A stretch of 45,291 bases of DNA from Gammaproteobacteria bacterium (GCA_033839185.1 JAJLKJ010000078.1:1-45291); one strand, 5' to 3'. Numbered from the stretch's first letter, positions 1-20,844 are shown. The notes: generated by a model not told the origin, from the sequence alone. A program made the numbers and translations.

Positions 1-759
1 GTGCTGACCGGCGGCACCGTGATCTCCGAGGAAGTGGGTCTGTCCCTGGAAAAGGCCACCCTGGATGACCTGGGCACCGCCAAGAAGGTGCAGATCACCA
101 AGGAAAACACCACCGTCATCGACGGCGCCGGCCGCAAGGACGAGATCGAAGGCCGCGTGGCCCAGATCCGCGCCCAGATCGAGGAGGCCACCTCCGACTA
201 CGATCGCGAAAAGCTGCAGGAACGCGTGGCCAAGCTGGCCGGCGGTGTGGCCGTGATCAAGGTCGGTGCCGCCACCGAGATGGAAATGAAGGAAAAGAAG
301 GCCCGCGTCGAAGACGCCCTGCACGCCACGCGTGCGGCCGTCGAGGAAGGCGTGGTGCCGGGCGGTGGCGTCGCGCTGGTGCGCGTGCTGCAGGCCATCA
401 AGGGCCTCAAGGGTGACAACCACGACCAGAACACCGGCATCGACATCGCGCGTCGCGCCATGGAAGAGCCGTTGCGCCAGATCGTCTCCAACGCCGGCGA
501 AGAGGCCTCCGTGGTCGTCAACAACGTCGAGGCGGGCGAAGGCACCTACGGCTACAACGCCGCCACCGGTGAATACGGCGACATGATCGAGATGGGTATC
601 CTCGATCCGGCCAAGGTCACGCGCACCGCGCTGCAGAACGCCGCGTCCGTGTCCGGCCTGATCATCACCACCGAGGCGATGGTCGCCGAACTGCCGAAGA
701 AGGACGCCCCGGCCCCGGCCGGCGGCATGGGCGACATGGGCGGCATGGGCATGATGTAA
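1..759 (+). CDS. groL: Chaperonin GroEL, C-terminal 252 aa (5' end outside window)
   Basis: Frame-1 ORF open from the window edge. Shows the GroEL equatorial/C-terminal sequence ([10 protein letters not shown]..., [18 protein letters not shown]) and the hallmark [12 protein letters not shown] tail. TAA stop at 757-759, followed by a strong terminator. Confidence 0.97.
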
Positions 760-1677: not shown

Positions 1678-1787
1678 TGGCCGTCATTCGTTATTCTCGT
1701 ATGAGGTATCCAGTTGAATAATATGGCGTAATGGAGATTGGCATCGCATTTGCTCCCCAGGTGGGCATAACAAACATGGGAGCCGTG

Positions 1788-3821: not shown

Positions 3822-3945
3822 GGCGTCCCCGCCTCGAGCGGGCCCGCCCCGGGCCCGCCCTCCAGGCTCATGGTAAAATGCGCCCTCGGTCCCCAATGCC
3901 ATGCCCCGGCGGCGGGGGCCTCTTTTTTCCCGGGCCCCATCACCG

Positions 3946-4635
3946 ATGTCACGAAGTCTTGCACCAGCGCTGATGCTTTCCGCCGCCGTCCATGTCGCGG
4001 CCGCGGGCGGCTACTGGCTGTGGGGTGGGCAGCCGGCCGGGCATGACCGCCTGCCGGTGGTGGAGGTGGCCCTGCTGGCGGAGGCCGTCAGCCCTGCGGA
4101 CCCGGGGCCCGCCGACATCGACCCGGAGATCGCCCCGGAGCCGGTGAGGGCGGACGCCGTGCCCGTGACGGCGGCGAGTACCGACATGCCTCCTGTCGAG
4201 CACAGACCGCCCGAGCGGTCATCGCGTGAGCCGGTTGCCGGGCGGCCACCGGCAGCATCCACTGCGGTGCCGCCGGCGTCATCGGCATCGGCATCGGCGG
4301 CGCCGTCGCCGCAACCTGCCGCCGCCACCGCGGGGTTGATCGCCTCCATCGAGCAGGCCTACAAGACCGCCCTGCAGGCGGAGATCGCCCGCCATCGCAG
4401 CTATCCGCTGATGGCCCGGCGCCTGCGCCAGGAGGGCACGGTGGCGGTGGGTTTCGTGGTGCAGGCCGACGGGCAGCTGACCGCCATCGAGCTGCTGGAA
4501 AGCTCCGGCCATCGACTGCTGGACGAGGCCGCCCTGGCCGCCGTGCGCGAGGTCGCCCGGTTCCGTCCGATCCCCGAAGAGCTCGACCGCCAGGACTGGC
4601 CCCTCTCCGTCCCGCTAAATTTTCGGCTGCTCTAG
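3946..4635 (+). CDS. tonB: Energy transducer TonB
   Basis: N-terminal TM anchor (LAPALMLSAAVHVAAAGGYWLW), a Pro/Ala-rich spacer (PEIAPEPV...) and a TonB C-terminal domain (YPLMARRLRQEGTVAVGFVVQADGQLTAIELLESSGHRLLDEAALAAVRE). Start chosen at the ATG at 3946; 3901 is also possible. Confidence 0.85.
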   Translation: MSRSLAPALMLSAAVHVAAAGGYWLWGGQPAGHDRLPVVEVALLAEAVSPADPGPADIDPEIAPEPVRADAVPVTAASTDMPPVEHRPPERSSREPVAGRPPAASTAVPPASSASASAAPSPQPAAATAGLIASIEQAYKTALQAEIARHRSYPLMARRLRQEGTVAVGFVVQADGQLTAIELLESSGHRLLDEAALAAVREVARFRPIPEELDRQDWPLSVPLNFRLL

Positions 4636-4732
4636 CCGCTATCACTAGGTACAGCACGATTGGTACGAGATGGCCGTCTGTCCGTCGATTGCCGCCGTCA
4701 GGGCGGATGACGGGCAGTAATGCGGCCGGATT

Positions 4733-4751
4733 CACGTCTATATAAGACGTG
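4733..4751. promoter_or_regulatory. Inverted repeat CACGTCT-N5-AGACGTG enclosing a TATATAA motif, upstream of the chemoreceptor gene
   Basis: cacgtct (4733-4739) atata agacgtg (4745-4751), about 67 nt upstream of the ATG at 4818. The AT core resembles a -10 element. Confidence 0.3.
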
Positions 4752-4817
4752 GAGATGTCTCACCACAAGAGCGCCTGCGAGGGCGCCGACGCGCAAGGCG
4801 ACCGTAGGGGTAGAGCA

Positions 4818-6851
4818 ATGATGAAGCGTTTGATGCCGAACTTGCAGATCCGCCACAAGATCTGGGCCGGATACGGCCTGCTGGTGGCCATCCTGGCCGT
4901 GGTCTCGTTGAGCGCCTGGTTCGGGCTGGGCAGCACGCAGCGGGCGATGGACGAGATCGTCAGCGTGAAGCAGCCCGCCATGATGCAGTCCATGGAGCTT
5001 GCCCGGGACCTGGAGCGGGCGGTGGCGGGTATGGGCTTCTACCTGCTGAGCGGGGAAGAGGACCATCGCGAGAACTTTACATTCGCGCTGACACGCGTGC
5101 AGGAGCTCTCGGCCGAGTTGGCCGCCAACCCGTATGTGGCCGGCCAGGCCGAGCTCTCCGCACAGGTGGCCAACATCGCGGGTAACGTCGAGCGTCTGGG
5201 GGGCTTCAGTGCGGAGATCATCCGCCTGGCCCAGGACCCGGCGGCCAATATGCCGGCCATGCAGTATGCCGGTCAGACGGTCAACCCGCTGAGCCAGCAG
5301 ATGCTGCAGCAGCTCGGGCAGATGCTGCTCACCGAGGCCGAGGAGCCCGCGACCCCCGAGCGCAAGCGCCTGCTCGCCGACATCAACGACCTGCGCTACG
5401 CCTGGGCCAACGTGATGAACGGGGTGCGCGCCTATCTCGCCTTTCGCGGTGAAAGCTCGTTGAATGAAGTGGCGCTCTATCTCGAACAGACCGGTGCAGT
5501 GATCGAACGTCTCCAGGAATCCTCAGCCCTGCTCACCTTCGACCAGGAGGACTCGCTGTCCCAGTTCATCGAGCTGCGCGAGCAGTTCATCGCCAGCTAC
5601 GAGGAGCTGAAGGCCATTCATGGCGGCGAGAAGAGCCGCATGGATGCCTACCTGATCCGCACCGAGATCGGGCCGCTGGTCGCCGAGATCGAGTACGACC
5701 TGGCCATGCTGGGTTCCTCGCTGCAGGAGGAGATCAAGACGGTGACCAGCAGCCTCAACACGCAGCTGGCGGCCACCGAGTCGACGGCGCTGGTGCTGAT
5801 GCTGGTCGGGGTCGGCATCGGCATCCTCGCCGCCTGGGGCATGTCGCGCATGATCGGCGGGCCGCTGCGCCAGCTGTCGGCGGCGATGACGGACATTGCC
5901 GAGGGCGAGGGCGACCTGACCCACCGTCTGCAGGTGACCAGCCGTGACGAGATCGGCCAGCTGGCGCAGGCCTTCAATACCTTCGCCGGCAAGGTGCATG
6001 ACGTCGTGAGCCAGGTGAAGGGCTCCGTGGCCCAGCTGGCGGCAGCGGCCGAGCAGATGTCCGTGATCACCTCGCAGACCAGCGAGGGCGTGGCCCGCCA
6101 GCAGCAGGAGACCGACCAGGTCGCCACGGCCATGCACCAGATGAATGCCACGGCCCAGGAGGTGGCGCGCAACGCGAGCAGCACCGCCAGCGCGACCGAA
6201 GAGGCGGACCGCGAGACCCGCTCCGGTCAGGCGGTGGTGAACCGCACGGTGGAGGCGATGAACGCCCTGGCCGGCGAGGTGGAGCGCGCCGCCGGCGTGA
6301 TCATGAAGGTGGAGAAGGACTCCGAGAGCATCGGCACGGTCATGCAGGTGATCCGCGACATCGCCGAGCAGACCAACCTGCTGGCGCTCAACGCCGCCAT
6401 CGAGGCGGCGCGCGCCGGCGAGCAGGGCCGGGGCTTCGCGGTGGTGGCCGACGAGGTGCGTACCCTGGCCAGCCGCACGCAGGCCTCCACCGAGGAGATC
6501 GATCAGGTGATCAAGACCCTGCAGGGCGCCACGCGCGAGGCCGTGCAGGTGATGGAGGCGAGCCGCGACAAGGCACGCACGGGTGTGGACCAGGCCTCCG
6601 AGGCGGGCAAGTCGCTGACCTCCATCTCGGGCGCGGTGGACAACATCACCGAGATGGGCACCCAGATCGCCAGCGCCGCCGAGGAGCAGAGCGCCGTGGT
6701 CGAGGAGATCAGCCGCAACGTGACGAGCATCAGCGAGGTGGCGAGCCAGACCGCCGAGGGCACGCGTCAGCTGGCGGCGGCGAGCAACGAGCTGGCCAAC
6801 CTGTCGGCCGACCTGCAGGCCCTGGTGGGGCGCTTCAAGGTCGCCGACTGA
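4818..6851 (+). CDS. Methyl-accepting chemotaxis protein (CHASE3-like periplasmic domain, HAMP, MA signalling domain)
   Basis: N-terminal TM, then a CHASE3-like region ([15 protein letters not shown]), a second TM and HAMP ([39 protein letters not shown]). Conserved MCP hairpin [37 protein letters not shown]. Confidence 0.92.
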
Positions 6852-6860
6852 CGGCTGCGG

Positions 6861-7922
6861 TTACGGGCGCACGTCCTCGCGACGCGGGAACATCACCAGG
6901 TGGTCGATGTCGAGGCGGATCTTCATGCGCGCGCCGACCTGGTAGTCGTAGTGACTGTGGGCCAGTGACAGCACCTTGACGCCGCTCTGCAGGCGCAGGG
7001 TGTAGAGGAACTGGGCCCCGCGAAAGGCCTTGTCCAGCACCTCGGCCGGCAGGTCGGCGTTGTCGTCGTGCACGATGTCGTCCGGACGCACCAGGATGTC
7101 GACCTGGCAGCCCTTGCCGCAGAATGCCGGCACCTCCCCCTCGATGATGCCGAGTTCGGTCTCCACCTGGTGCGGGTTGAGCACCGTGCCCGGCAGCAGC
7201 ACGCCCTGGCCGATGAAGTCGGCCACGAAACGGTTGGCCGGCTGGTGATAGAGCTGGTAACCGTTTGCCCACTGCTGCAGCGCGCCGGCATTGATCACGC
7301 CGATCTCGTCGGCCATGGCGAAGGCCTCGAACTGGTCGTGGGTGACCAGCAGGCCCGAGATGCCCTCCTGCTTGAGGATCGCACGCACCTCGCGCGCGAG
7401 TCCCTCGCGCAGTTCCACGTCCATGCTGGAGAAGGGTTCGTCCATGAGCAGCAGCTTGGGGCGGGGCGCCAGTGCCCGGGCCAGGGCGATGCGCTGCTGC
7501 TGGGCGCCGGAGAGCTGGTGCGGGTAGGCCTTGCCGTAGGCGGGCAGGCCCACGAGCTGCAACAGCTGGGTGACGCGATCCTTGCGCTCGCCCACCGACT
7601 GCTGGCGGATGCCGAAGGCGATGTTCTCCTCCACCGTGAGGTGGGGGAACAGCGCGAAGTCCTGGAAGACCATGCCCACCTGCCGTTTCTCCGGCGGCAG
7701 GGCATAACCCGTCCGGCTCACCACCTTGCTGGCGAGGTAGATCCAGCCCGAGGCCACCGGCTCGAAACCGGCGATCGCGCGCAGCAGGGTGGTCTTGCCG
7801 CAGCCGCTCGGCCCCAGCAGGCAGCCGATCATGCCTTCTTCCAGCTGGAAGGAGACCTCGTGCACCACGTGACGCCTGCCGTAGGCGATGCTTACCTTGT
7901 CCAGTTCAAGCAGCGTGCTCAT
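6861..7922 (-). CDS. ABC transporter ATP-binding protein, Fe(3+)/polyamine-importer type (FbpC-like)
   Basis: Walker A GPSGCGKTT, signature LSGAQQQRIALARAL, Walker B LLLMDEPFS, and a C-terminal TOBE-like domain. Overlaps the permease stop. Confidence 0.9.
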   Translation of the reverse strand: MSTLLELDKVSIAYGRRHVVHEVSFQLEEGMIGCLLGPSGCGKTTLLRAIAGFEPVASGWIYLASKVVSRTGYALPPEKRQVGMVFQDFALFPHLTVEENIAFGIRQQSVGERKDRVTQLLQLVGLPAYGKAYPHQLSGAQQQRIALARALAPRPKLLLMDEPFSSMDVELREGLAREVRAILKQEGISGLLVTHDQFEAFAMADEIGVINAGALQQWANGYQLYHQPANRFVADFIGQGVLLPGTVLNPHQVETELGIIEGEVPAFCGKGCQVDILVRPDDIVHDDNADLPAEVLDKAFRGAQFLYTLRLQSGVKVLSLAHSHYDYQVGARMKIRLDIDHLVMFPRREDVRP

Positions 7923-9600
7923 GGCCCGGTCTCGATCGGCTGATGGAGCGGCTGAGGATGATCACCGGGATGATCCCCGCCACGACGATGGCGAGCGCCG
8001 CCGTGGAGGCGTCGGCCAGCCGCTCGTCGGAGGCCAGCTCGAAGGTGCGCACCGCCAGGGTGTTGAAGTTGAAGGGCCGCAGTATCAAGGTCGCCGGCAG
8101 TTCTTTCAAGACGTCCACGAACACCAGCAGCACCGCCGTGAGCAGCGTGCCGCGCATGATCGGCATATGGATCCTGCGCAGCACCTGGCGCGGGGGCAGG
8201 CCCAGCGAGCGGGCGGCGTCGTCCATGGTGGGGCGGATCTTGCCCAGTCCCGCCTCCACCGTCTGGATGGACACGGCCAGGAAGCGCACGGTGTAGGCGA
8301 ACAGCAGTGCGACCAGGGTGCCGCTTAGGATCAGCCCGGTGGAGATGCCGAACTGGGCGCGCATCCAGGCATCGATGGCATTGTCCGTCCAGGCAAAGGG
8401 CAGCATCACCCCCACGGCGATGACCGTGCCGGGTACGGCATAGCCCATGGCGGCCACGCGCACCGAGGCGACCATCAGCGGCGTGGGGCGCAGGCGCTTG
8501 CCATAACCCATGAGCAGGGCGAGTCCCACCGCGATGAGGGCCGCGAGACTCGCGAGCATGAGGCTGTTCCCGGTCAGCGCGATGAAGTCCGCATCCACCA
8601 TGGTCCCGGCGGTCTGCCAGGCCCAGACGGCGAGCTGGCCAGCGGGCACCACGAAGCCCAGCAGCAGGGGCAGCAGGCAGGCCAGCAGGGCCAGCGCGCG
8701 TCGCGTGCCGGTCAGGCGATGGCGGGGCAGCTGCAGGTAGCGGTTGCTGGTGTGGTGGAAACGGGCACGGCGCCGTGACCAGCGCTCCAGCACGATGAGC
8801 AGGAAGACGAAGCCCATGAGCAGGGCCGAGAGCTGCGCGGCGGCGGCGCTGTCACCCAGGCCGAACCAAGTGCGGAAGATGCCGGTGGTGAAGGTGCTCA
8901 CGCCGAAGTACTGCACCGTGCCGTAGTCGGCGAGGGTCTCCATCAGGGCCAGCGACAGGCCGGTGATGATGGCGGGGCGGGCGAGCGGCAGGGCCACGCG
9001 GAAGAAGCTCGCCCAGGGACCGAGGCCCAGGGTGCGGCTCACCTCCAGTACGCAGACCGACTGTTCGAGAAAGCCCGCGCGCGCCAGCAGGTAGACATAG
9101 GGATAGAGCACCAGCGAGAGCATGGCGATGGCCCCGCCCAGCGAGCGGATCTCGGGGAACCAGTAGTCGCCATAACCCCAGCCGAAGGCCTCGCGCAGGG
9201 CATCCTGTATCGGGCCCTCGAAGCCGAGCATCCCCGTGTAGGTGTAGGCGATGATGTAGGCCGGCACGGCCATGGGCAGCAGCAGCGCCCACTCGAAGAA
9301 ACGCCGCCCCGGGAATTCGCACATGCTGGTGAGCCAGGCCGTGCTGATGCCCATCGCCAGCGTACCGACGGCCACGCCGACCATCAGCAGCAGCGAGTTG
9401 ACGACGTAGTCGGCGAGCACCGTCTCGGCCAGGTGGCGCCAGACGTCGCCGGCCGGATAGAAGATGAAGCTGAACACCACCAGCACCGGCAGCGAGAGCA
9501 GCAGGGCCGTCGCCACCACGCCCACGCCCCAGGCGTCCGGCAGGGCCAGGCGCCTGGGGCGTGTCACGGGTTGTGGAGATGCCACCGGGTTCGGGTTCAT
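7906..9600 (-). CDS. Iron(III) ABC transporter permease (duplicated FbpB-like membrane domain)
   Basis: About 560 aa with two tandem ABC permease domains, each with an EAA-like loop (LEVSRTLGLGPWASFFRVALPLARPAI; DDAARSLGLPPRQVLRRIHMPIMR). The ATG at 9600 is preferred over the TTG at 9618. Confidence 0.88.
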   Translation of the reverse strand: MNPNPVASPQPVTRPRRLALPDAWGVGVVATALLLSLPVLVVFSFIFYPAGDVWRHLAETVLADYVVNSLLLMVGVAVGTLAMGISTAWLTSMCEFPGRRFFEWALLLPMAVPAYIIAYTYTGMLGFEGPIQDALREAFGWGYGDYWFPEIRSLGGAIAMLSLVLYPYVYLLARAGFLEQSVCVLEVSRTLGLGPWASFFRVALPLARPAIITGLSLALMETLADYGTVQYFGVSTFTTGIFRTWFGLGDSAAAAQLSALLMGFVFLLIVLERWSRRRARFHHTSNRYLQLPRHRLTGTRRALALLACLLPLLLGFVVPAGQLAVWAWQTAGTMVDADFIALTGNSLMLASLAALIAVGLALLMGYGKRLRPTPLMVASVRVAAMGYAVPGTVIAVGVMLPFAWTDNAIDAWMRAQFGISTGLILSGTLVALLFAYTVRFLAVSIQTVEAGLGKIRPTMDDAARSLGLPPRQVLRRIHMPIMRGTLLTAVLLVFVDVLKELPATLILRPFNFNTLAVRTFELASDERLADASTAALAIVVAGIIPVIILSRSISRSRPGHEHAA

Positions 9601-9609
9601 GGGCTGCAG

Positions 9610-9638
9610 CAAACGCAAAGGGGGCGCATTGCGCCCCC
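9610..9638 (-). terminator. Intercistronic GC hairpin (attenuator/partial terminator) between the binding-protein and permease genes
   Basis: On the minus strand: gggggcgc-aat-gcgccccc (9620-9638) followed by tttgcgtttg. Confidence 0.5.
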
Positions 9639-9667
9639 GGGCAAGAATGCCTGCAGTTTACCAGACA

Positions 9668-10690
9668 TCATTTCCAGCCGGCACGATCCATCAGCATCAG
9701 TGCCTCGGCATTCAGCTCGCCGAGCCTGCCCATGTTGACGGCGTCGGCCTTGAACTGACCCCAGTCTTCCAGGGTATCGCTCCAGGCCACGCCTTCCAGC
9801 ACCGGATATTCGTGGTTGGTCTCGGCATACCAGCGCTGGGACTCGGCGTTGCTCATGAACTCCAGCAGCTTGATGGCGTTGGCCTTGTTGCGGGACGCGG
9901 CGGTCACGCCGGCGCCGCTGACGTTGACGTGGGTACCGCGGTCGTCCTGGTTGGGCCAGAACACGCCGATCTTCTGCGCGGCCTCGCGCTGGGCGGCATC
10001 CGAGCCGTTGAGCATCATGGCCAGGTAGTAGGTGTTGGCGATGGCGATGTCGCAGCGACCGGCCGCGGCGGCACTGATCTGGTCGCGGTCACCCCCGCGC
10101 GGCGGCTGGGCGAAGTTGGCGACGAAGTCACGGGCCCAGTCCTCGGTGGCCTTGACGCCGTTGCTCGCGATCATCGAGGCGACCAGCGACTGATTGTAGA
10201 TGTTGCTCGAGGAGCGGATGCAGATGCGGCCCTTCCACTGCGGGTCGGCCAGGGCCTCGTAGGTGGAGAGTTCGGCCGGATCGACCTTGCCCTTCACGTA
10301 CATGATGGGGCGGGCGCGCAGCGACAGGCCATACCAGTAGCCTTCCGGATCGCGGTAGCTGGCGGGGATGGCGTCCTCGAGCACGGTCGAGTCGATCGGC
10401 TGCAGCACGCCGGCCTCCCTGGCGCGGTGCAGACGGCCCGCATCGGTGGTCAGCAGCAGGTCGGCCGGGGTGTTGCGGCCCTCGGACTGCAGGCGCTGCA
10501 GCAGGGCATCGGCCTTGCCGGTGACCAGGTTGACCTCGATGCCGGTTTCCTTCGTGAAGCGTTCCAGCAGGGGCTTGATGAGCTCTTCCTTGCGCGCGGA
10601 GTACAGGTTGACCTCTTCGGCGGCCTGGGCGGCGGCACCGAACAGGCCCAGGGCCAGCAGGCCGGCCAGCATCAGAAAACGACTACGCAT
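9668..10690 (-). CDS. Fe(3+) ABC transporter periplasmic substrate-binding protein (FbpA/AfuA-like)
   Basis: Signal peptide MRSRFLMLAGLLALGLFGAAAQA|AE. Mature start EVNLYSARKEELIKPLLERFTKETGIEVNLV is typical of ferric-binding proteins. GGGAG SD upstream. Confidence 0.88.
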   Translation of the reverse strand: MRSRFLMLAGLLALGLFGAAAQAAEEVNLYSARKEELIKPLLERFTKETGIEVNLVTGKADALLQRLQSEGRNTPADLLLTTDAGRLHRAREAGVLQPIDSTVLEDAIPASYRDPEGYWYGLSLRARPIMYVKGKVDPAELSTYEALADPQWKGRICIRSSSNIYNQSLVASMIASNGVKATEDWARDFVANFAQPPRGGDRDQISAAAAGRCDIAIANTYYLAMMLNGSDAAQREAAQKIGVFWPNQDDRGTHVNVSGAGVTAASRNKANAIKLLEFMSNAESQRWYAETNHEYPVLEGVAWSDTLEDWGQFKADAVNMGRLGELNAEALMLMDRAGWK

Positions 10691-10745
10691 ACAACGACTC
10701 CCTGGTTGAATGAATGGAGTGGATCGTGGATAAAAGTCGTAACGC

Positions 10746-10767
10746 GAATTATTATCATTTAATGATC
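10746..10767. promoter_or_regulatory. Fur-box-like AT-rich operator candidate upstream of the Fe(3+) ABC operon
   Basis: gaattattatcatttaatgatc is the only AT-rich patch in the fbpA-like upstream region. attattatcatttaa matches 10 of 15 positions of the Fur consensus segment ATGATAATCATTATC. Confidence 0.45.
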
Positions 10768-10816
10768 CGGTGGCGTCAAGGGGGACGCATCACCCGCTGT
10801 GCTGTCATCCCAAACG

Positions 10817-10840
10817 AAAAAAAGCGGCCACGAGGGCCGC
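10817..10840 (-). terminator. Rho-independent terminator of the ECF sigma/anti-sigma operon
   Basis: Minus strand: gcggcc-ctcgt-ggccgc (10824-10840) followed by TTTTTTT (complement of the A-run at 10817-10823). Confidence 0.8.
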
Positions 10841-10868
10841 TTCGATGCTCGGTAGCAGGGTGGGGAGG

Positions 10869-11561
10869 CTAGACCTTGATGTAGGTCCAGCCCTCGCGCA
10901 TCCGCTCGATGATGTGTTCCACGGCGGAGGGGGCGGTATGGGTCCTGGGCAGCAGCACCACCTCGACGCCGGCGCGCTCGAGGTGGCGGATGGCGGTGTC
11001 GCAGGCGATGAACTGGAGTTCCTCGTGCTCGGCCATCATGGCCAGCACGCGCTGGCCGTAGGGGGAGCCGCCCGCGCGCAGCATATGCAGTCCCTCGCTG
11101 TTGGCCACGACCTCGATCTGTACGCCCTGTTCGCGGTATTCCTCGAGCAGCGACTCGGCGCGATCGAGCGTGGCCTGCATCTTGGCCGGCTCGGCCGTGG
11201 CGATATGCAGGAGAATGCGCGGCGCCTGTTCTGCCGTCGCCACCTGCTGCAGGGGGCTGGTGCTGTGATGGTTGGCCAGCCAGCCGCCGGAGAAGCCCAG
11301 TGAGATCAGTAGGGCGGCCGCGACGCCGAAGGCCGCCAGACGCTTGCGCGGGTGGTTGCTGTCGACGACCTCGCGGCGTGGTGCCTCCACCCCGTCATAG
11401 GCGTGGCGCACGAGGTCCTTGAGGTTGCGCAGCTCGACGCACTCGGCGCGCAGGGCCGGGTCCTTTTCCATGTCGAGCAGGAAGGCGTCACGCTCCTGGT
11501 GGCTGAGTTCGCCGTCCAGGTAGGCATGGATACGCGCTTCGTCGCGAACGCTCTCGGTCAT
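10869..11561 (-). CDS. Membrane-spanning anti-sigma factor with a C-terminal (predicted periplasmic) DsrE-like / COG1416-type domain
   Basis: N-terminus has the anti-sigma signature IHAYLDGELSHQERDAFLLDMEKDPALRAE, with no HxxxCxxC zinc motif. Single TM at aa 74-95 (LAAFGVAAALLISLGFSGGWLA). Residues 113-230 align with the secreted DsrE-like protein at 12528-12983 (IEVVA..GL..L, F.AC..T, EG.TYIK end). The ATGA overlap with the sigma gene stop indicates translational coupling. Confidence 0.75.
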   Translation of the reverse strand: MTESVRDEARIHAYLDGELSHQERDAFLLDMEKDPALRAECVELRNLKDLVRHAYDGVEAPRREVVDSNHPRKRLAAFGVAAALLISLGFSGGWLANHHSTSPLQQVATAEQAPRILLHIATAEPAKMQATLDRAESLLEEYREQGVQIEVVANSEGLHMLRAGGSPYGQRVLAMMAEHEELQFIACDTAIRHLERAGVEVVLLPRTHTAPSAVEHIIERMREGWTYIKV

Positions 11562-12121
11562 TTAACCCTCCTCAGATGAGGTCTGCCCGCCTCGCTTGCG
11601 GCGGTTGCAGGCATGTGCAGATCGGTGAGAAACCCGGTCAGGGCGCGACGGGCCCGACACAGGCGGCTCATCACCGTGCCAACCGGGATGTCGAGGATCT
11701 CGGCCGTCTCGGCGTAGGCAAAGCCTTCGAGGTCCACCAGTGTGAGCACCTCACGCTGACCGATGGGCAGTTTGCCCACGGCACGGCGCACACGATTGAC
11801 GATCTCCTGGCTGGTCATCTCGACTTCGGGGCAATTCTCGCAGACGAACATCTCGTCGTCGATCTCCACCCCGGGCTTCTGCCGGCGCAGGTGTTCCCGC
11901 CAGGTGTTGCTGAGGATGGCGCTGAGCCAGTGCTCCAGCTTGTTGCCGTCACGCAGCTGGTGGCTCTTCTGCATGGCCTTGATCAGCGTGTCCTGGACCA
12001 GGTCGTCGGCCAGCATGGGGTCTCCACACCAGGCCAGCGCCATGCGGTAGAGCCGCGTTCGGCTGGCCTCCAGCTTCTTCTTGAACGTGCGCGTCGCACA
12101 GATGTGCTCGAGTACTTTCAT
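11558..12121 (-). CDS. ECF (sigma-70 family, group IV) RNA polymerase sigma factor
   Basis: Region 2 (RLYRMALAWCGDPMLADDLVQDTLIKAM) and region 4 HTH (REVLTLVDLEGFAYAETAEILDIPVGTVMSRLCRARRAL). 187 aa. Followed by an overlapping anti-sigma gene. Confidence 0.92.
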   Translation of the reverse strand: MKVLEHICATRTFKKKLEASRTRLYRMALAWCGDPMLADDLVQDTLIKAMQKSHQLRDGNKLEHWLSAILSNTWREHLRRQKPGVEIDDEMFVCENCPEVEMTSQEIVNRVRRAVGKLPIGQREVLTLVDLEGFAYAETAEILDIPVGTVMSRLCRARRALTGFLTDLHMPATAASEAGRPHLRRVK

Positions 12122-12430
12122 CTCTCCACCTACCCTGCATGATGCGTCGCCGGTTTTCTCTATTCCCGCTCTTTTGCGTACGTGCCTTGCGGCGATGGCG
12201 GTTTTGCGACGTGGTTTGTCTGTCGGTGACTTGGTAGCGGCGTGTTCCCCTTTGCCGTGAAGCAGTCTACCGCCACCGGCATCACATCGAAAGAAACAGA
12301 AGTATTTAATGAATTTCTAATCTTCCGGGCATGATGGATGGCGTCAGTTCTTCATGTCCCGCGTCCGTGGTTTTGACGGGATATTGCCTGCCATCATGCT
12401 GCCCGCCAGGGAGGGTGCCGTGCAGTGAAA

Positions 12431-12458
12431 GGAATATTTGTCATCCAGCGCGCGTCAA
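12431..12458 (+). promoter_or_regulatory. Candidate ECF-type promoter GGAAT-N17-CGTCAA upstream of the secreted DsrE-like gene
   Basis: ggaat (12431-12435), a 17-nt spacer, then cgtcaa (12453-12458), about 70 nt upstream of the ATG at 12528. Resembles the generic ECF architecture (GGAAC -35, CGTC/TCnAA -10). Not validated. Confidence 0.35.
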
Positions 12459-12527
12459 TCCGTCGTGAATGCAGAACAGTGCAGTCACGTATGCCAGGGA
12501 ATCATCAACAACAACAGAGGCAGGATA

Positions 12528-12983
12528 ATGAAACGCCACTCCTTTATCGCCGCGTGGTTCGCAGTATTGCTGGTGACTGTCTGCGCCGGGTCAAACGTCG
12601 TCGCGGCAGAGTCATCCTCCAAGCCGTTCGCCGAGAAGCATGTCGTCCTGCAGATATCGGATGAGGATCCGTTCAAGCAGACGCTGGTGCTGAATGTCGC
12701 GAGCAACCTGATCAAGCATTACGGACCTGACAAGGTGGACATCGAAATCGTGGCCTTTGGGCCGGGTCTGAGGCTGCTGTTTGCCGATAACGCGAACAGG
12801 GGGCGTATTGGTGATCTTTCACAGCAGGGCGTGCGGTTCGCGGCCTGCGAAAACACGATTGCCAACATGTCGCGCATCCTCGGCGAGGAGCCGGCCTTGA
12901 ACGACAAGGCCGTGCGGGTTTCTGCCGGCGTGGTGCGGGTCCTGGATCTTGAGGCCGAGGGCTACACGCTGATCCGTCCGTAA
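12528..12983 (+). CDS. Secreted DsrE-like (COG1416-type) protein, paralog of the anti-sigma sensor domain
   Basis: Sec signal MKRHSFIAAWFAVLLVTVCAGSNVVAA|ESS. Mature domain HVVLQISDEDP..., DIEIVAFGPGLRLL, RFAACENT (Cys107, codon 12846-12848), EGYTLIRP terminus. SD agagg/agga upstream. Visibly lower GC3 than neighbouring genes. Confidence 0.75.
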   Translation: MKRHSFIAAWFAVLLVTVCAGSNVVAAESSSKPFAEKHVVLQISDEDPFKQTLVLNVASNLIKHYGPDKVDIEIVAFGPGLRLLFADNANRGRIGDLSQQGVRFAACENTIANMSRILGEEPALNDKAVRVSAGVVRVLDLEAEGYTLIRP

Positions 12984-13052
12984 ACCGGGTAACGATTCCG
13001 CCTGCGTGTGCGGCGAGAAAGAACAAAGAAAAACATTCGGGGGTTTGAATTC

Positions 13053-14426
13053 ATGATGAAAGGGAAGAGACTGGCTGGCGCGGTGGCGCTGGCCCTGGGT
13101 ATGGTCGTGGCCGGTCAGGCGCAGGCCGCCAACTGGGTGATGCTGCAGGGCACGGAGCCGGATGGCATGGCCGAACGGGCCAGGCTTTGGGGGTTCGTGC
13201 AACCAACCTATCGCGCCACTGATGGCACCGAGCTGCCGGCAGGTCCGTGGGAAGGCCAGCCCATGCAGCCCAACATGATCCCCACCGACCTGAGCTCGGA
13301 TTCGCAGTTTCAGCTGCTGCGCGCCCGCATCGGCGTGCGTGGTGTGGCCATGCCGATCGACAGCAAGGTGAATTACTTCCTGCTGGCGGAGTTTGGTGAC
13401 AACGGCATCACCGCCGGCAAGGGCGGGGCGGGCGTCATCTCCGATGCCAGCGTGACACTCAATCACATCCCGGGTGCGCGTGTGCGACTGGGCCTGTTCA
13501 AGACGCCGATGAGCGAGGAGATCTTCCAGGGCGTGGGGACGATGGACTATGTCAACTTCACCGCCTTCACCGATCAGCAGCTCAACGAACGGCACCTGCC
13601 CACGGATGGCCTCGCGCCCTGTGTCTATGGTGCTGGCACCCTCTACAGCCGTTACTGCGAGGAAGGCAACACCTTCAGCGACTTCGGTGCGGCCCGCGAT
13701 ACCGGCGCCATGGTCTTCGATGCCTTCCGCCGAGGCGACTGGGAGCATACCTACGCCGTGATGCTCGGCAACGGCAGTGGCGTGAATGCCGGCAATACCG
13801 ACGACAACCTCGATACCCGCGCCTACTGGTCCTCCGAATGGGTCTTCGGCGGGCAGGGGCCGCGACGCGAGGGCTGGAAGCTCTATGCCTGGATGCATGA
13901 CGGCAAGCGCACCGTGCTCGACAGCGTGCAGCTGGCCGCGGGCAACCGGGTCGAGAACGAATACGACTACGAGCGCTCCGGCCTGGGTACGACCTACCGC
14001 CGCGGAAAGTACCGCTTCTTCGCCGAGTACAACCAGGCCGAGGGCATGATCTTCAACGGCACCGACGGCGGGGCCGTGGCGGGCTCGCTGAACAATGCCG
14101 GTACGATCGTCTCCACCTTCAACCTCCTACCCGAAGACAAGGCGAATGGTTACTACCTCGATTTCGGCTACAGGATCACGCCGAAGATCGAGCTGGATGT
14201 GCGCTATGACGTGCTGAACCGTGGTACGGAGACGGACGTGGAGGAACGCAAGTTCGAGACCGTGACACTGGGCGCGCAGTACTTCTTCAACCGCAAGTCG
14301 CGGCTGATCGTGAACTACGAGATGCGTGACCTGGAGGCACCCAACCTGCCGGCCAATGCCGTGCCGAACCAGATCGGCGAGGCGATCGATGACCGCCTGT
14401 CCGTCCAGGTCTTCATGGTCTTCTAG
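13053..14426 (+). CDS. Outer-membrane porin (possibly OprO/P-like anion porin family)
   Basis: Signal peptide MMKGKRLAGAVALALGMVVAGQAQA|AN. Alternating beta-strand pattern, RARIGVRG motif, terminal ..LSVQVFMVF. Lies 69 bp downstream of the DsrE-like gene and is followed by a strong terminator. Confidence 0.75.
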   Translation: MMKGKRLAGAVALALGMVVAGQAQAANWVMLQGTEPDGMAERARLWGFVQPTYRATDGTELPAGPWEGQPMQPNMIPTDLSSDSQFQLLRARIGVRGVAMPIDSKVNYFLLAEFGDNGITAGKGGAGVISDASVTLNHIPGARVRLGLFKTPMSEEIFQGVGTMDYVNFTAFTDQQLNERHLPTDGLAPCVYGAGTLYSRYCEEGNTFSDFGAARDTGAMVFDAFRRGDWEHTYAVMLGNGSGVNAGNTDDNLDTRAYWSSEWVFGGQGPRREGWKLYAWMHDGKRTVLDSVQLAAGNRVENEYDYERSGLGTTYRRGKYRFFAEYNQAEGMIFNGTDGGAVAGSLNNAGTIVSTFNLLPEDKANGYYLDFGYRITPKIELDVRYDVLNRGTETDVEERKFETVTLGAQYFFNRKSRLIVNYEMRDLEAPNLPANAVPNQIGEAIDDRLSVQVFMVF

Positions 14427-14489
14427 GATTAAAGGCTCCTGCAAGCGATAACAAGAACCTGCGTAATCAGGGTATGGCAGTGACGTTGA

Positions 14490-14513
14490 CCCCGGGCTTC
14501 CGGGGTTTTTTTT
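14490..14513 (+). terminator. Rho-independent terminator of the porin gene
   Basis: ccccgg-gctt-ccgggg (14490-14505) followed by T8 (14506-14513). Confidence 0.9.
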
Positions 14514-14528
14514 GCCTGGACGGTTTTG

Positions 14529-14706: not shown

Positions 14707-17025
14707 TCATGCCGGGAGGTCGGGCGTGTACTCGAAGAGTTGCGATTGCGGCATGGGACGGGCGAACAGGTAGCCCTGGTAGGCATCGCAGCCGGCGGTC
14801 TCGAGAAAGCGTTGCTGCTCCTTCGTCTCCACGCCCTCGGCGATGACCTCGAGATTGAGGGAGTGCCCCATGGCGATGATGGCGTGGATGATGGCGGCAT
14901 CGCTGGGGTTGAGCAGCACGTCGCGGACGAAGGAGGTGTCGATCTTGACCTGGTCCAGCGGCAGGCGCTTGAGGTAGGAGAGCGAGGAGTAGCCGGTGCC
15001 GAAGTCGTCCATGGAGAAGCGCAGCCCCAGTTCGCGCAGCTGGTGGATCTTGCCCGCGATCTCCTTCGGGTCGCCCAGTACGACGGTCTCCGTGAGTTCC
15101 AGCTTGATCAGTCGCGGGTCGACACCGGTTTCTTCCAGGATGTGTGTCACTCGCTGTACGTAATCGTTCTGGTGGAACTGGCGGGCGCTGACATTGACTG
15201 CGATGCAGCGCGGTGACTGCGGTTGACGCCGGTTCCAGTCGATGGTGGTGAGGCAGGCCTGCTTGAGGACCCAGTCTCCAATCGGGACGATGAGTCCGGT
15301 CTCCTCGGCCAGCGGGATGAAGGTGGCGGGCGAGACAGGCGCCTCGTCCGCTGGCAGCCAGCGCAACAGGGCCTCGGCGCCGGTGAGATTTCCGGTGCGG
15401 TCGATCTGTGGCTGGTAGTGCAGTGCCAGCTCATCGTTTTCCAGGGCATTGGCCAGGGTCGCCTCGAGCGAGGCGCGTTGCTCGACCGCGCGCTGCATGC
15501 GCGGGTTGAAGAAGACGGCGGTGTTGCGCCCCGCCGACTTGGCGGCGTAGAGGGCCATGTCGGACTGTTTGAGCAGGTCTTCCAGCGGGGTGCCCTGCCC
15601 CTGGAACAGGGTGATGCCGATACTCGGGGTGATGCGGTAGGCGCGTATCACACCGAGGTCATAGGGCTCGCTCAGGTTGTGGCGGATCTTTTCCGCAATA
15701 TCTTCAGCCTGCCGGGTGGCGGTCGCATCGTTGCTGTCCAGGGCCTCGAGCAGGATGACGAACTCGTCGCCGCCGAGACGGGCGATGGTGTCGACCTCGC
15801 GCACCAGCATGCGCAGGCGCTGCGCGATCTGTACCAGCAGTGTATCGCCGGCATCGTGTCCGCGCGTGTCGTTGAGGGTCTTGAAACGGTCGAGATCGAT
15901 CATCAGCACGGCACCGCGTTCGCCGGACCGGTTGCTGGTGGCCAGGGCATGTGCCAGCCGGTCGTTGAGCAGGCGGCGGTTGGCCAGGTGCGTGAGCGGG
16001 TCGTAGAAGGCCAGCTGGTGGATGCGGCGCTCGGCGTCCTTGCGGTCGGTGATGTCGGAGAAGGCCGCCACATAATGCGTGGTCTCGCCGGCATCGTTGC
16101 AGACCTCGCTGATGGAGAGCCATTCGGGGTAGACGCTGCCGGACTTGCGGCGATTCCAGATCTCGCCTTCCCAGTAGCCGCGTTCGCCGATGGCCTGCCA
16201 CATGTCGGCATAAAAGGCCGGGTCGTGACGCCCCGACTGCAGAATGCGCGGTGTCTGGCCGACAACCTCCTCGGGGGCGTAGCCCGTGATGCGGGTGAAG
16301 GCGCGGTTGACCTGTTCGATGCGGCCGCTGCGATCGGTGATCATGATGCCTTCCTGCGACTCGAAGGCCACGGCGGCAATGCCCAGGCGTTCCTCGCTTT
16401 GCTTGCGCCGGGTGATGTCCGTATGTGTGCCCATCACCCATTCGGGGCGATTGTCGGCGTCACGGGTGATCACCTGGCCGCGATCATGGATCCAGACCCA
16501 GTGCCCCTGCCGGTGGCGCATGCGGAATTCGATGTCGTAATGATCCAGCTCGCCGGAGAAGTGGCGCTGGAGCAGTTGTTCGGCGCGGGAGAGGTCGTCC
16601 GGGTGTGTGAGCCGGCGCCAGGTCTCGATGTCCGTGGGCTCGAGTTCCTCCAGCCTGTAGCCCAGGATGCCGGCCCAGCGCTCGTTGAAGATGGTCTGGC
16701 CGGTGAGGACGTTCCATTCCCAGGTCCCGGCCCGGGTGCCGTCGATGATGGCCGCCAGGCGGCGACGCTCGTCGGCGAGTGCCTGGCGCGCCTCGTCGGT
16801 GTGGCGTGACTCGTGGCGGACCATGAAGTACACGAACAGGATGGAGAGCAGGACGAAGATGAGTCCCTTGGTGCTCTGCACCTGACGCATCTGTTCGATA
16901 CTGAGGGGGGCCAGGCTGACGATCCAGTCCGACAGCAGGATCCAGCCCGTGCCGAAGAGGCCGTAATACAGGGTGCAGCGTCCGGCAATGCCGAGTCGAT
17001 GTAGCAGGGTCGGGCTGGGTTTCAT
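14707..17025 (-). CDS. Membrane-anchored PAS-PAS-GGDEF-EAL c-di-GMP turnover protein
   Basis: Two N-terminal TM helices and two PAS-like segments ([22 protein letters not shown]; [21 protein letters not shown]). Canonical GGDEF with an RxxD I-site ([14 protein letters not shown]). EAL domain ([39 protein letters not shown]). The ATG at 17025 is preferred over 17103. Confidence 0.93.
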
Positions 17026-17189
17026 GCAAGCTTGCCGGTTTGACGGGGCGGGCTGGCAGTGGCCCGGACCCAGGAGTGGGTGTATGGAGGGGAGTATATA
17101 CATATCCTGCCCCGGGTATCAGCGCCGCACGGCTTGAGCCGCCCTGTGGTATCGCGTAGTTTCGGGCTCAGGAGAGACGGCTCGTTGAC

Positions 17190-18903: not shown

Positions 18904-18931
18904 AAAAAGCCGGGCTTCTGCCCGGCTTTTT
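18904..18931. terminator. Bidirectional rho-independent terminator between convergent genes
   Basis: aaaaa-gccgggc-ttct-gcccggc-ttttt (18904-18931). Confidence 0.9.
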
Positions 18932-20727
18932 CATGCCTCGCCGACGGCGCGTGCCGTATCGACGGCATCATGCGTCGGGGTAAGGTGCTGCCGCCGGGAG
19001 ACGAACAGCGCATTGCCCTCCATCGTCTTGGCCATGTGCTTGGCATCGGTGGCCAATGTGGCCACCTCGTGATGGGAGGCGCAGCGACGGGCATCCGGAC
19101 TCGCCACCCCCACTGACAGGCTCAACAGTGGAAAGAAGGTAGGCTGACCCTGCCGGTCACTGGCCTCGATGCCGCCGCGGGCGATGTCGGCCGGCTCGTA
19201 GAAATCCATCGTGGCATTGGCAAAGGCTTCCAGGATGTGCTGACAACGGGCCTGCCAGTCGGTGCTGCGCAGAATGGCGACGAAGTCATCGCCGCCGACA
19301 TGGCCAATGAAGTCGTTACGCGGATCGAGCCCGGTTTCCAGTATCTGCGCCAGCCGCTTGATGACCTGGTCGCCCTTGCTGTAGCCGTAGGTGTCGTTAT
19401 AGGGCTTGAAATTGTCGAGATCGAAATAGGCGATGTGGAAGTCGCCGCCTTCCTGCAACAGGCGATCGATGGTCTCGTAGATCGGTACGTTGCCGGGCAG
19501 TTGGGTGAGCGGGTTGGAGTGGCGGGCATTGCGTATCTGCAGGTCGGTGATCTTGCGCAGCAGATCGCGTACATGACCCATGCCGAGGTACTTCCCCTGC
19601 TTGCTGATGATGAAGTCATGGCGCATGTCCAGCTGGGGATTCTCGGTGAGCTTCTGGCTGACGGCCTCCACCGGGGAGTCATGGGCCACGATCATGGGCC
19701 GGGAATCCATGAATTGCTCGATGGGTTTCTTGCCATGCAGTTCGCGGCCATAGCGGCTGGCGAAGAGCTCCAGCATGGTGTCGCGGTGCATGATGCCCAC
19801 CGGGCGTTGCTGGCGCAGCACCGGCAGCGACTGCAGTCCCTGCACCATCTGGAACATCTCCGCCACCTGGTTGACGCGTGTGCCGGCCTCCACCGACGGC
19901 ACGCGCACGGCCAGGCTTTCGATGGTCTCGGACAGCCGGGGCGTACGCTGGTTGCCGCCGCAGTTACGGCAATGCAGCAGCGACTCGTCCAGCTGGTCCG
20001 GCGGCATGGCCTGTGGGCGGCCGAAGTAATAGCCCTGGCCCAGGCGGATACCCATGTTGAATACGGTCTGGTATTCGGCGGCCGTCTCGATGCCCTCGGC
20101 AATCACGCGGCAGCCCAGGCCGGCGGCGATGTCGATGATCGAACGGACGAACTCCTGCTTGACGATGTCTTCATCGATGCCTGCGATGAAGTGCCGGTCG
20201 ATCTTCACGTAGTCCGGGCGCAGCTCCGACCAGCTGCGCAGTCCCGCGTAGCCCGCACCCAGGTCATCGATGGCGATCTCGAATCCCATGGCCCGGTAAT
20301 GGCGCACGGTATCCCGGATCAGATCGTAATCATCCAGCGGGTATTGCTCTGAGATCTCGATGACGACCGAGCGGGGACTGATGCCCGCCTGCTCCAGGAT
20401 CTGCGGCGTCTGGTTCGACGGGTAGTTGCGTTCCAGCAGGCTGGTCGGGCTGACATTGAGAAAGAGCTTGCCGGCGAGGTCCAGATGGGCGAACTGCAGA
20501 GCGGAGATCTCGCGCGCCAGCAGCTCCACATCGGCGAGCCGGTTGTAGCGATTGGCGGCCTCGAACAGGTTGATCGGGGCATGCAGGCTGCTGTCGGACG
20601 GGCCGCGGATCAGGGCCTCATAGCCCAGCATGCAGCGGTCCTGGAAGTCCACGATGGGCTGGAACAGGGCACTGAGCGCCCGGGCATCGAGAATGCGGTT
20701 GAGTTCGGCCTGGGAGGTTGAAGGCAT
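18931..20727 (-). CDS. EAL - CBS pair - GGDEF(degenerate GGDDF) signalling protein
   Basis: N-terminal EAL (LFQPIVDFQDRCMLGYEALIRGP, EISEQ, IDDLGAGYAGL, KIDRHF, AEGIET, GQGYYFGRP). Central CBS-like pair. C-terminal GGDEF fold (FDLDNFKPYNDTYGYSKGD ... HVGGDDFVAIL). Start ATG 20727 or GTG 20757. Confidence 0.9.
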   Translation of the reverse strand: MPSTSQAELNRILDARALSALFQPIVDFQDRCMLGYEALIRGPSDSSLHAPINLFEAANRYNRLADVELLAREISALQFAHLDLAGKLFLNVSPTSLLERNYPSNQTPQILEQAGISPRSVVIEISEQYPLDDYDLIRDTVRHYRAMGFEIAIDDLGAGYAGLRSWSELRPDYVKIDRHFIAGIDEDIVKQEFVRSIIDIAAGLGCRVIAEGIETAAEYQTVFNMGIRLGQGYYFGRPQAMPPDQLDESLLHCRNCGGNQRTPRLSETIESLAVRVPSVEAGTRVNQVAEMFQMVQGLQSLPVLRQQRPVGIMHRDTMLELFASRYGRELHGKKPIEQFMDSRPMIVAHDSPVEAVSQKLTENPQLDMRHDFIISKQGKYLGMGHVRDLLRKITDLQIRNARHSNPLTQLPGNVPIYETIDRLLQEGGDFHIAYFDLDNFKPYNDTYGYSKGDQVIKRLAQILETGLDPRNDFIGHVGGDDFVAILRSTDWQARCQHILEAFANATMDFYEPADIARGGIEASDRQGQPTFFPLLSLSVGVASPDARRCASHHEVATLATDAKHMAKTMEGNALFVSRRQHLTPTHDAVDTARAVGEA

Positions 20728-20844
20728 GCAGTCGGCCCGGCATGAGGATGGATGCACAGGGCGTGAACGATACGAAACCGACGTGACAGCCGGATGACGG
20801 CGGATGGTTCGCGCGAAGAGTGGGGCGTCGGCGCTGGCGGGAGG

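Follow-up and report, generated by a model that had tools for sequence, protein, structure and literature searches.

A widespread ECF sigma/anti-sigma module with a periplasmic DsrE-like domain as a candidate sensor of sulfur compounds in sulfur-oxidising Proteobacteria

How sulfur oxidisers perceive inorganic sulfur compounds is a subject about which little is known (PMC10451225). Here we consider a stretch of 45,291 nucleotides from a Gammaproteobacteria bacterium (GCA_033839185.1, JAJLKJ010000078.1:1-45291; this whole stretch is called the window), in which two divergent operons with four genes at 10869-14426 encode a sigma factor of the extracytoplasmic function (ECF) type, a membrane-anchored anti-sigma factor, a secreted protein and a porin. 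On balance, we favour the view that in sulfur-oxidising Proteobacteria they form an ECF signalling module, complete in itself, which senses periplasmic sulfur species. From a functional perspective, the closest described systems are those of the ECF26 group: RpoE1 and RpoE4 of Sinorhizobium meliloti, and the RpoE encoded beside sorAB in Starkeya novella, respond to sulfite that arises from thiosulfate or taurine (PMC3511301). Co-transcription of the sigma factor with a membrane anti-sigma factor and autoregulation are features that ECF26 systems share with the module as predicted here, and they also comprise a very small regulon adjoining the sigma operon, a response to inorganic sulfur and the control of periplasmic sulfur-oxidation proteins (PMC3511301). 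The anti-sigma factors of ECF26 carry a COG5662 domain (PMC3511301), whereas the one described here carries a COG1416/DsrE-like domain. Furthermore, the ECF26 systems belong to heterotrophic Alphaproteobacteria and act on sulfite dehydrogenase, cytochrome c and pseudoazurin, in contrast to the DsrE-like protein and the porin of this locus.

In its logic, the module comes closest to the RseA/RseB-sigmaE and CnrYXH systems, which likewise combine a periplasmic input with a single-pass anti-sigma factor bearing a cytoplasmic sigma-binding domain, and in which a periplasmic partner encoded with the system modulates the anti-sigma factor. Unlike in those systems, the DsrE-fold sensor is here fused to the anti-sigma factor itself, and the candidate partner is the sensor's own paralog. 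In fold, the closest known systems are DsrEFH and TusBCD (PF02635), hetero-hexamers of the cytoplasm from which persulfide sulfur is handed on to DsrC or TusE. They have in common with the module the alpha/beta fold and the side-by-side arrangement of paralogous genes, whereas the proteins considered here are predicted to be periplasmic, one of them being fused to an anti-sigma factor, and belong to the distant MTH1491/COG1416 branch. Direct homologs are the archaeal proteins MTH1491 (PDB 1L1S) and ST0148 (2PD2), which share the ACxNT cysteine motif and a C-terminal G-W/Y-x-Y-I/L-K/R. Those proteins are cytoplasmic, stand-alone and of no known function, whereas their counterparts in the module appear to be exported or membrane-anchored and wired to the control of transcription.

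Control of sulfur-oxidation genes by way of sulfur-modified cysteines is the theme that would link the module to SoxR, sHdrR, SqrR and BigR (PMC10451225), of which the first three are described as cytoplasmic repressors of sulfur oxidation (PMC10451225). All four are ArsR-type DNA-binding repressors with two cysteines, in contrast to a trans-membrane sigma/anti-sigma pair with one periplasmic cysteine, and most carriers of the latter are gamma- and betaproteobacterial lineages whose names refer to sulfur oxidation. That a protein of the periplasm can hold sulfur intermediates covalently on a cysteine has a precedent in SoxYZ (PMC5336275), which has an unrelated fold and no regulatory role; soxYZ genes adjoin the module in three loci. 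A first-pass annotation of the locus, made from its sequence, had called the architecture undescribed, and this has stood up: full-text literature searches returned no anti-sigma factor linked to a DsrE-like domain, NCBIfam holds no model that covers an anti-sigma/DsrE-like architecture, and neither DsrE nor sulfur comes up in the main text of the paper that reclassified the ECF sigma factors. What appears to be new is a form of ECF sigma/anti-sigma signalling in which a DsrE-fold domain would act as the periplasmic sensor and a secreted paralog as its partner.

What kind of domain does the anti-sigma factor expose to the periplasm? The first-pass annotation had likened its C-terminal part to a DsrE/COG1416-type fold, and sequence and structure comparisons both bear this out, with none placing it in a non-DsrE family. 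The domain matches MTH1491, the COG1416 prototype, in phmmer searches (E 6e-7), and its AlphaFold2 model, which has a predicted local distance difference test score (pLDDT) of ~90, aligns with 1L1S in Foldseek at E 4e-9, a TM-score of 0.91 and a root-mean-square deviation of 1.7 Å. Further Foldseek matches are ST0148 (2PD2, TM-score 0.87) as well as 3PNX, 2QS7 and 3MC3 (E 4e-5 to 3e-3), the latter three being annotated as DsrE/DsrF-like. The similarity to 1L1S spans the whole 113-residue chain, not only for the anti-sigma domain but also for the secreted protein and for the profile of the secreted family. Judged by sequence and model, the sensor domain is a DsrE/DsrF-like fold of the COG1416/MTH1491 branch.

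The domain carries a single cysteine, Cys187. In an alignment of 179 anti-sigma sequences, which comprises the window protein, 31 close homologs and 147 further best representatives of a profile search, this residue is 100% conserved and is the sole cysteine of the periplasmic domain in every member. G157, W225 and Y227 are also invariant, while N154 and H119 are conserved at 97% and 95%, respectively. In the AlphaFold2 model Cys187 is located at the end of strand beta3, just before a helix. The equivalent residue of MTH1491 is Cys72; its native Cys70 and Cys72 needed protection by Ellman's reagent during labelling (PMC5495134).

The sensor is predicted to be connected to transcription through an ECF sigma factor and its single-pass anti-sigma factor. 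The product of the first gene in the minus-strand operon consists of regions 2 and 4 only, within 187 residues (Pfam Sigma70_r2, E 3e-13, residues 19-82; Sigma70_r4_2, E 1e-17, residues 110-161), and it exceeds the cut-off of the NCBIfam sigma70-ECF superfamily model TIGR02937 with 72.5 against 42.9 bits. Of the specific NCBIfam equivalogs none attains its cut-off, the best being NF009164 with 113.8 against 185 bits. Its best relatives in the PDB are SigH, SigW and RpoE, CnrH also being a detectable relative. On the evidence of sequence it is an ECF (group IV) sigma-70 factor, as initially annotated. The stop codon TGA of its gene overlaps the start codon ATG of the anti-sigma gene as ATGA, again in keeping with the earlier description. 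As a side observation, region 2 of the window sigma factor contains the cysteine-bearing motif LYRMALAWCGD (~residues 28-33, 11960-12040), and a corresponding motif, YR(L/M)A(Y/L)(A/S)WC(H/G)D, is present in most related sigma translations that we inspected; a second, cytoplasmic thiol input through the sigma factor's own cysteine is conceivable.

The anti-sigma N-terminus is modelled as three helices (residues 3-15, 21-33 and 35-55, pLDDT 85-90). Pfam zf-HC2 reaches 20.4 bits with the window protein (E 5.7e-4), just below its cut-off of 22.2, and NCBIfam anti-sigma models match at E 9e-4 and 1.5e-3; among 25 relatives, zf-HC2 is matched in nine and RseA_N in five. These similarities suggest, weakly yet consistently, an anti-sigma-like domain. 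A zinc-binding (ZAS-type) anti-sigma factor was considered and rejected: within the stretch of the zinc motif only D16, L19 and A13 are conserved among the 179 relatives (D16 and L19 at >=95%), and no conserved cysteine or histidine of an HxxxCxxC motif is found, therefore the protein is not ZAS-type. The single transmembrane segment is preceded by five lysine or arginine residues in the window protein and followed by none (15 residues on each side). The relatives have on average 3.7 such residues before and 0.84 after the segment, and the positive-inside rule gives an N-in/C-out orientation in 171 of the 179 sequences, in agreement with the earlier proposal of a single-pass protein whose sensor domain is extracytoplasmic.

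Are both operons under the control of this sigma factor? The first-pass annotation had placed a promoter of the secreted-protein/porin operon at 12431-12458, and an ECF-type site is indeed present there (Table 1): its form GGAATA-N16-CGTC has one exact match in the 45-kb window, with 0.08 expected. The relaxed form GGAATA-N14-18-CRTC has exactly two matches in the window against 0.27 expected. Both predicted ECF promoters lie in islands that are conserved among the window and two homologous loci, L047 and L001 (such loci are designated by L numbers here), while the rest of the spacer has diverged. More broadly, 30 of 37 distinct loci have a GGAAT[AT]-N15-17-C[GA]TC motif at most 300 nt upstream of sigma, and 20 of the 37 have a twin on the opposite strand, at a shuffle expectation of 0.003 per strand. 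The stricter CGT[CT] form gives 49 matches in 400 kb against 6.0 +/- 2.8 in shuffles, and most of these fall within module spacers. Further instances are located 5' of soxY in L003 and 5' of a second DsrE-plus-porin operon in L006, and several gammaproteobacterial loci likewise have a -10 element of the GCATC form. The motif fits the ECF pattern of an AAC/AAT-type -35 and a CGT-type -10 element, and the predicted promoters are the signature, at the level of sequence, of an ECF sigma factor that controls its own operon and a small regulon close by. Altogether, we hold the regulatory wiring of the module to be very probably as described.

Not all matches to the motif are likely to be promoters. 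Those at 9029-9005 in L020, 8940-8916 in L026 and 3885-3861 in L027 (two Thiobacillus metagenome-assembled genomes, MAGs, and one Pseudomonadota MAG) have the near-identical sequence GGAATATCCGGTCACGTTCAGCGTC; they were rejected as promoters, being inside a long conserved open reading frame (ORF) a few kilobases from the module and probably reflecting conservation of coding sequence. When the window, L047 and L001 are aligned, the spacer between the operons shows a third conserved island, distinct from both ECF promoters, again with diverged flanks. This block may represent a housekeeping promoter for basal sigma expression or the site of a second regulator. A riboswitch or small RNA was also considered, and no Rfam match was obtained in the 406-bp spacer, the block included.

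How widespread is this arrangement, and in which organisms is it found? An exhaustive profile search of 1.84 billion proteins yields at least 527 anti-sigma clusters at 50% identity (E <= 1e-30), and the 150 best listed clusters are all full length (221-261 residues); a word-indexed search gives 31 clusters at 90% identity. In the sources these proteins bear automatic names only, such as 'DsrE family protein' or 'zf-HC2 domain-containing protein'. At 90% identity, no fewer than 3594 clusters match the secreted family, and the porin family, which also occurs in a tubeworm endosymbiont, has at least 1939. Named carriers of the module include Thiomicrospira sp. WB1 and S5, Thiohalobacter thiocyanaticus Hrh1, Thiobacillus, Thiobacillaceae and Sulfuriferula, as well as members of Thiotrichales, Thiohalobacterales, Chromatiales and Rhodocyclaceae, taxa which we take to be sulfur-oxidising lineages. 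Wherever a locus has sufficient upstream sequence, the anti-sigma gene is immediately preceded by the sigma gene, and a divergent secreted DsrE-like gene, usually followed by a porin gene, is present in ~21 of ~33 distinct loci. The four-gene module was reached again from two secreted-protein homologs taken as independent starting points. Linkage of the four genes, proposed at first for this locus, is thus kept in distant genomes, among them those of Thiomicrospira, Thiohalobacter and Thiobacillaceae.

In three Rhodocyclaceae loci the pair is placed among sox genes. The order in L003 is soxY-soxZ-sigma-anti-sigma-soxA-soxX-soxB; in L036, soxY, soxZ and soxB lie downstream of the anti-sigma gene; and in L033 (Rhodocyclaceae UBA2271, 3213-10823) the order is sigma-anti-sigma-soxY-soxZ-soxXA fusion (458 residues)-soxB. 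The divergent operon of L033 encodes a secreted alpha/beta hydrolase (320 residues) and then a Sulf_transp (PF04143) membrane transporter, and an ECF promoter pair precedes both operons in this locus. The link to sulfur is strengthened by the taxonomy of the carriers, by the placement within sox operons and by the ECF promoter before soxY.

How might such a module read the periplasm? We envision a resting state in which the N-terminal helical domain of the single-pass anti-sigma factor keeps the ECF sigma factor tethered to the membrane, with the periplasmic COG1416/MTH1491-type DsrE-fold domain and its lone, invariant Cys187 serving as the putative sensor. A reduced or partly oxidised inorganic sulfur species in the periplasm, conceivably polysulfide or other sulfane sulfur, thiosulfate, tetrathionate or sulfite, would modify or bind the domain at Cys187, which it might reach either directly or by way of the secreted paralog. 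Release of the sigma factor would most likely follow from proteolysis by the cascade typical of single-pass anti-sigma factors, or else from a change in oligomeric state. Free sigma factor would then transcribe from GGAATAA-N15-17-C(G/A)TC promoters both its own operon and the divergent one, a step supported by the conservation of the promoters, and the secreted DsrE-like paralog and the OprP-family porin might jointly provide for the entry and binding of an anionic sulfur substrate. The sox genes of Rhodocyclaceae would be driven by the same system. The parts of this scenario differ in strength: a sulfur compound is somewhat probably the signal, while covalent chemistry at Cys187 is a tentative proposal that we would not yet put at even chances.

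Several points weigh against sulfur sensing. The support for all family members is computational. The window contains no sox, dsr or sqr gene within its 45 kb, and in about one third of loci the pair is placed among housekeeping genes, often groESL, with no sulfur gene within 6 kb. The association of the carriers with sulfur oxidation derives from the names of MAGs and isolates, not from genome-wide co-occurrence with sulfur-oxidation genes. Pfam PF02635, to which the first-pass annotation had also pointed, gives a divided answer: the two DsrE-like proteins of the window have no match to it at E <= 1, and NCBIfam and Pfam scans of both sequences return no DsrE match of any kind at that threshold, whereas the family is matched in 13 of 25 anti-sigma relatives (best E 1.6e-6) and in 8 of 17 secreted relatives (best E 1.2e-12). 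Sulfur carriage in the COG1416/MTH1491 branch would moreover be an extrapolation, by analogy, from distant DsrE/TusD relatives. Cys78 of E. coli TusD, which we take to be the persulfide carrier, presumably occupies the same end-of-beta3 place in sequence. When the secreted family is compared with TusD in hhalign, the probability is 0.3% and not significant, and the sole local match consists of eight residues, aligning QGVRFAAC107 with HGVALNIC78 at that same probability. Because of this low value, the equivalence of the module's cysteine with Cys78 is suggestive and not proven. Finally, the general view of obligate chemolithoautotrophs is that they express their sulfur-oxidation genes at high levels all the time (PMC10451225).

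Alternatively, the lone cysteine may report an oxidising environment, reactive oxygen or chlorine species, or thiol stress in general, for example through intermolecular disulfides, in which case sulfur substrates would not be the signal and the porin and the secreted protein would represent a protective envelope response. A single invariant cysteine cannot form an intradomain disulfide, and SigH, a redox-stress sigma factor, is among the closest solved relatives of the sigma factor. Several loci have no sulfur genes nearby, and cytochrome b561-type genes lie near the pair in L006 and L039, accompanied by a molybdopterin oxidoreductase gene in one and by a YceI-family gene in the other. Such a role is hard to reconcile with named carriers that belong mostly to sulfur-oxidiser lineages, with the occurrence of the pair within sox operons and of the motif before soxY, and with a fold from the superfamily best known for sulfur carriers. 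We therefore regard a thiol-redox or envelope-stress sensor as distinctly unlikely, and retain a sulfur species as the preferred signal.

If a sulfur species is sensed, what is the contribution of the secreted protein? It has a Sec-type signal peptide (residues 1-26: MKRH, a hydrophobic core, VVA|AE) and matches 1L1S and 2PD2 in phmmer searches (E 3e-11 and 4e-4, respectively), the match of its family profile to 1L1S having an E value of 1.3e-26. The secreted family shows no variation at C107, N109 and T110, which are part of the ACxNT motif, and Cys107 corresponds to Cys187 of the anti-sigma domain. BLASTP of the secreted protein against the anti-sigma domain is not significant (E 1.1). Comparison of the two families in hhalign gives a probability of 99.5% (E 2e-23, 27% identity over 115 columns), and because this profile-profile comparison is significant, we consider the two as true paralogs. 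With the signal peptide, this confirms that the protein is a stand-alone, Sec-exported copy of the same domain, as had been surmised. Given that signal peptide and the N-in topology of the anti-sigma factor, these proteins share a fold with the known cytoplasmic relays but are not members of them. A lipoprotein anchored at Cys19 of the secreted protein was considered and rejected, VTVC being no lipobox and homologs lacking that cysteine.

One possible extension of the sulfur-sensing model is a periplasmic sulfur relay, in which the secreted paralog would load sulfane or thiosulfonate sulfur admitted by the porin and pass the sulfur, or its loading state, to the anti-sigma domain. Covalent transfer of sulfur onto a trans-membrane anti-sigma factor would then set the transcription of sulfur-oxidation genes, sox included. 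We present this relay as a speculative variant, with perhaps one chance in a few of being right. Another view, in our estimation an unlikely one, is that the anti-sigma domain reads no small molecule directly but forms mixed trimers with the secreted paralog, whose occupancy, sulfur loading or abundance would set sigma activity. Because the secreted protein is itself under predicted ECF control, as indicated by the promoter of its gene, this would close a feedback loop. Such an assembly has parallels: paralogous DsrE-fold subunits assemble in DsrEFH and TusBCD, RseB guards RseA, and CnrX acts on CnrY. Moreover, the two domains are paralogous and encoded head-to-head in about two thirds of loci, some carriers have three or four paralogous periplasmic copies (L006), and N154 characterises the anti-sigma copies, with F, Y or H taking its place in their secreted counterparts, a pattern consistent with a specialised interface. 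The prototype MTH1491 is a stable homotrimer (PMC5495134). It speaks against this view that about one third of loci have no paralog alongside. Feedback from a partner is compatible with the sensing of sulfur species and may be part of it.

The fourth protein of the module matches Pfam PF07396 (Porin_O_P) with 30.9 bits against a gathering score of 20.9, and nearly all of the porin homologs listed carry this domain. Its AlphaFold2 model is a 16-strand barrel (pLDDT 79), for which Foldseek finds OmpF, the anion-selective Omp32 and OprP at E ~1e-12; a sequence search against the PDB returned nothing, OprP included. The family match and the 16-strand model together corroborate the initial designation as an outer-membrane porin. 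Could the module then serve generic anion uptake, with an OprP-like porin for phosphate, polyphosphate, nitrate or selenate and DsrE-like proteins that bind the anion? Membership in Porin_O_P is consistent with this, and OprP has the top query-normalised TM-score (0.53) among the top Foldseek matches shown, tied with one OmpF entry; phosphonate-binding-protein genes are located near the module in L007 and L008. It would leave unexplained the invariant cysteine, the sox linkage and the taxonomy of the carriers, and the porin is missing from several loci that retain the DsrE-like pair, L007 and L008 among them, so that we consider it very improbable. Within the porin, at residues ~208-222 (13680-13730), two cysteines are spaced 14 residues apart in the segment APCVYGAGTLYSRYCEEG, where no regular strands are modelled; on the basis of the model, the pair may represent a disulfide-stapled loop.

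Should sulfur sensing by the module be borne out, it would have consequences on several levels. The module is a widespread and concrete candidate for extracytoplasmic sulfur sensing, and its carriers include lineages of importance to marine and sedimentary sulfur cycling, among them Thiomicrospira, Thiobacillus, Sulfuriferula and Thiohalobacter. With one cysteine, two promoters, a small predicted regulon and culturable hosts, it is readily testable. The structure of MTH1491 has been available since 2002 without its role becoming known, and the module would offer the first functional handle on the COG1416/MTH1491 family. The porin may indicate the outer-membrane entry route for anionic sulfur substrates, and in synthetic biology the pair might be of use as an orthogonal ECF switch responsive to sulfur compounds. 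If the relay variant were true, it would constitute the first periplasmic inorganic-sulfur sensor in chemolithoautotrophic sulfur oxidisers, the first function for COG1416, a new input logic for ECF sigma factors (a relay through the sensor's paralog) and an extracytoplasmic counterpart of the DsrEFH and TusBCD relays.

Table 1. Features of the sigma/anti-sigma locus and of the divergent operon, in positions of the window
Feature	Position	Strand	Remarks
Terminator-like hairpin and T run, 3' of the anti-sigma gene	10811-10843	-	stem 10843-10821
Anti-sigma gene	10869-11561	-	230 aa; helical anti-sigma domain at the N-terminus, single transmembrane helix, periplasmic COG1416/DsrE-like domain at the C-terminus
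Periplasmic COG1416/MTH1491-type DsrE-like domain, residues ~112-230	10872-11228	-	sequence and fold match to 1L1S
Cys187 codon	11001-11003	-	TGC, context FIACDTA
Single transmembrane segment, residues 75-97	11271-11339	-	LAAFGVAAALLISLGFSGGWLAN; hydropathy maximum 1.86
Cytoplasmic anti-sigma domain, residues 1-57	11391-11561	-	three helices, without HxxxCxxC zinc motif
ECF sigma gene	11558-12121	-	187 aa
Intergenic spacer between the divergent operons	12122-12527		406 bp
Predicted autoregulatory ECF promoter, sigma operon	12141-12166	-	GGAATAG-N15-GCATC, just upstream of sigma
Conserved spacer block	12264-12307	.	AGTCTA, 21-22 nt, then AAGAAACAGAAGTAT
Predicted ECF promoter, secreted-protein/porin operon	12431-12456	+	GGAATA-N16-CGTC, 72 nt upstream of ATG
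Secreted stand-alone COG1416/DsrE-like gene	12528-12983	+	151 aa; start ATG 12528
Cys107 codon of the secreted protein	12846-12848	+	sole Cys of the mature part
Outer-membrane porin gene	13053-14426	+	457 aa with signal peptide
Terminator-like hairpin and T8 run, 3' of the porin gene	14488-14515	+	stem 14488-14507

The layout of the locus (Table 1) agrees with that originally outlined, namely four genes between terminators, arranged head-to-head across a 406-bp spacer: both operons end in predicted terminator-like hairpins with T runs. The hairpin on the anti-sigma side has nine pairs, six of them G-C, followed by TTTTTCGTTTG, and the one on the porin side has eight pairs, six of them G-C, followed by TTTTTTGCCT. 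The genes of the secreted protein and the porin are separated by a gap of 69 nt and are probably co-transcribed.

A more elaborate version of the module is found in L006 (Thiobacillaceae MAG GCA_049578545.1, 1949-8267), which encodes four periplasmic COG1416/DsrE-like domains: a 148-residue protein followed by a porin, a 153-residue protein, the anti-sigma factor and a downstream 148-residue protein. The copies fall into three sequence types, VVLQISD...ACxNT, KVVYHIDD...VCNNTLKGR and VVF...VACENTM. Four ECF-motif sites are present in this locus, one of them upstream of a 141-residue secreted protein without a Pfam match.

The window as a whole is fully syntenic with the Chromatiales MAG GCA_014762505.1. 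A PAS-GGDEF-EAL gene (14707-17103, minus strand) immediately beyond the porin terminator is syntenic in L047 and L001, and a 608-residue ORF (18931-20757, minus strand) is syntenic in L047, where its counterpart has EAL, CBS and GGDEF domains. Because these GGDEF/EAL genes are not kept beside the module in distant carriers, they are probably unrelated to it. The start of the window (1-759) is the 3' part of groEL, and in three other lineages (L017, L024 and L041) the sigma/anti-sigma pair directly adjoins groES-groEL. In the window, genes for a TonB-dependent receptor, TonB, a chemoreceptor and an Fe3+-type ABC transporter (~1731-10690) separate groEL from the pair, and this TonB/ABC block may represent an insertion into an older groESL-sigma neighbourhood.

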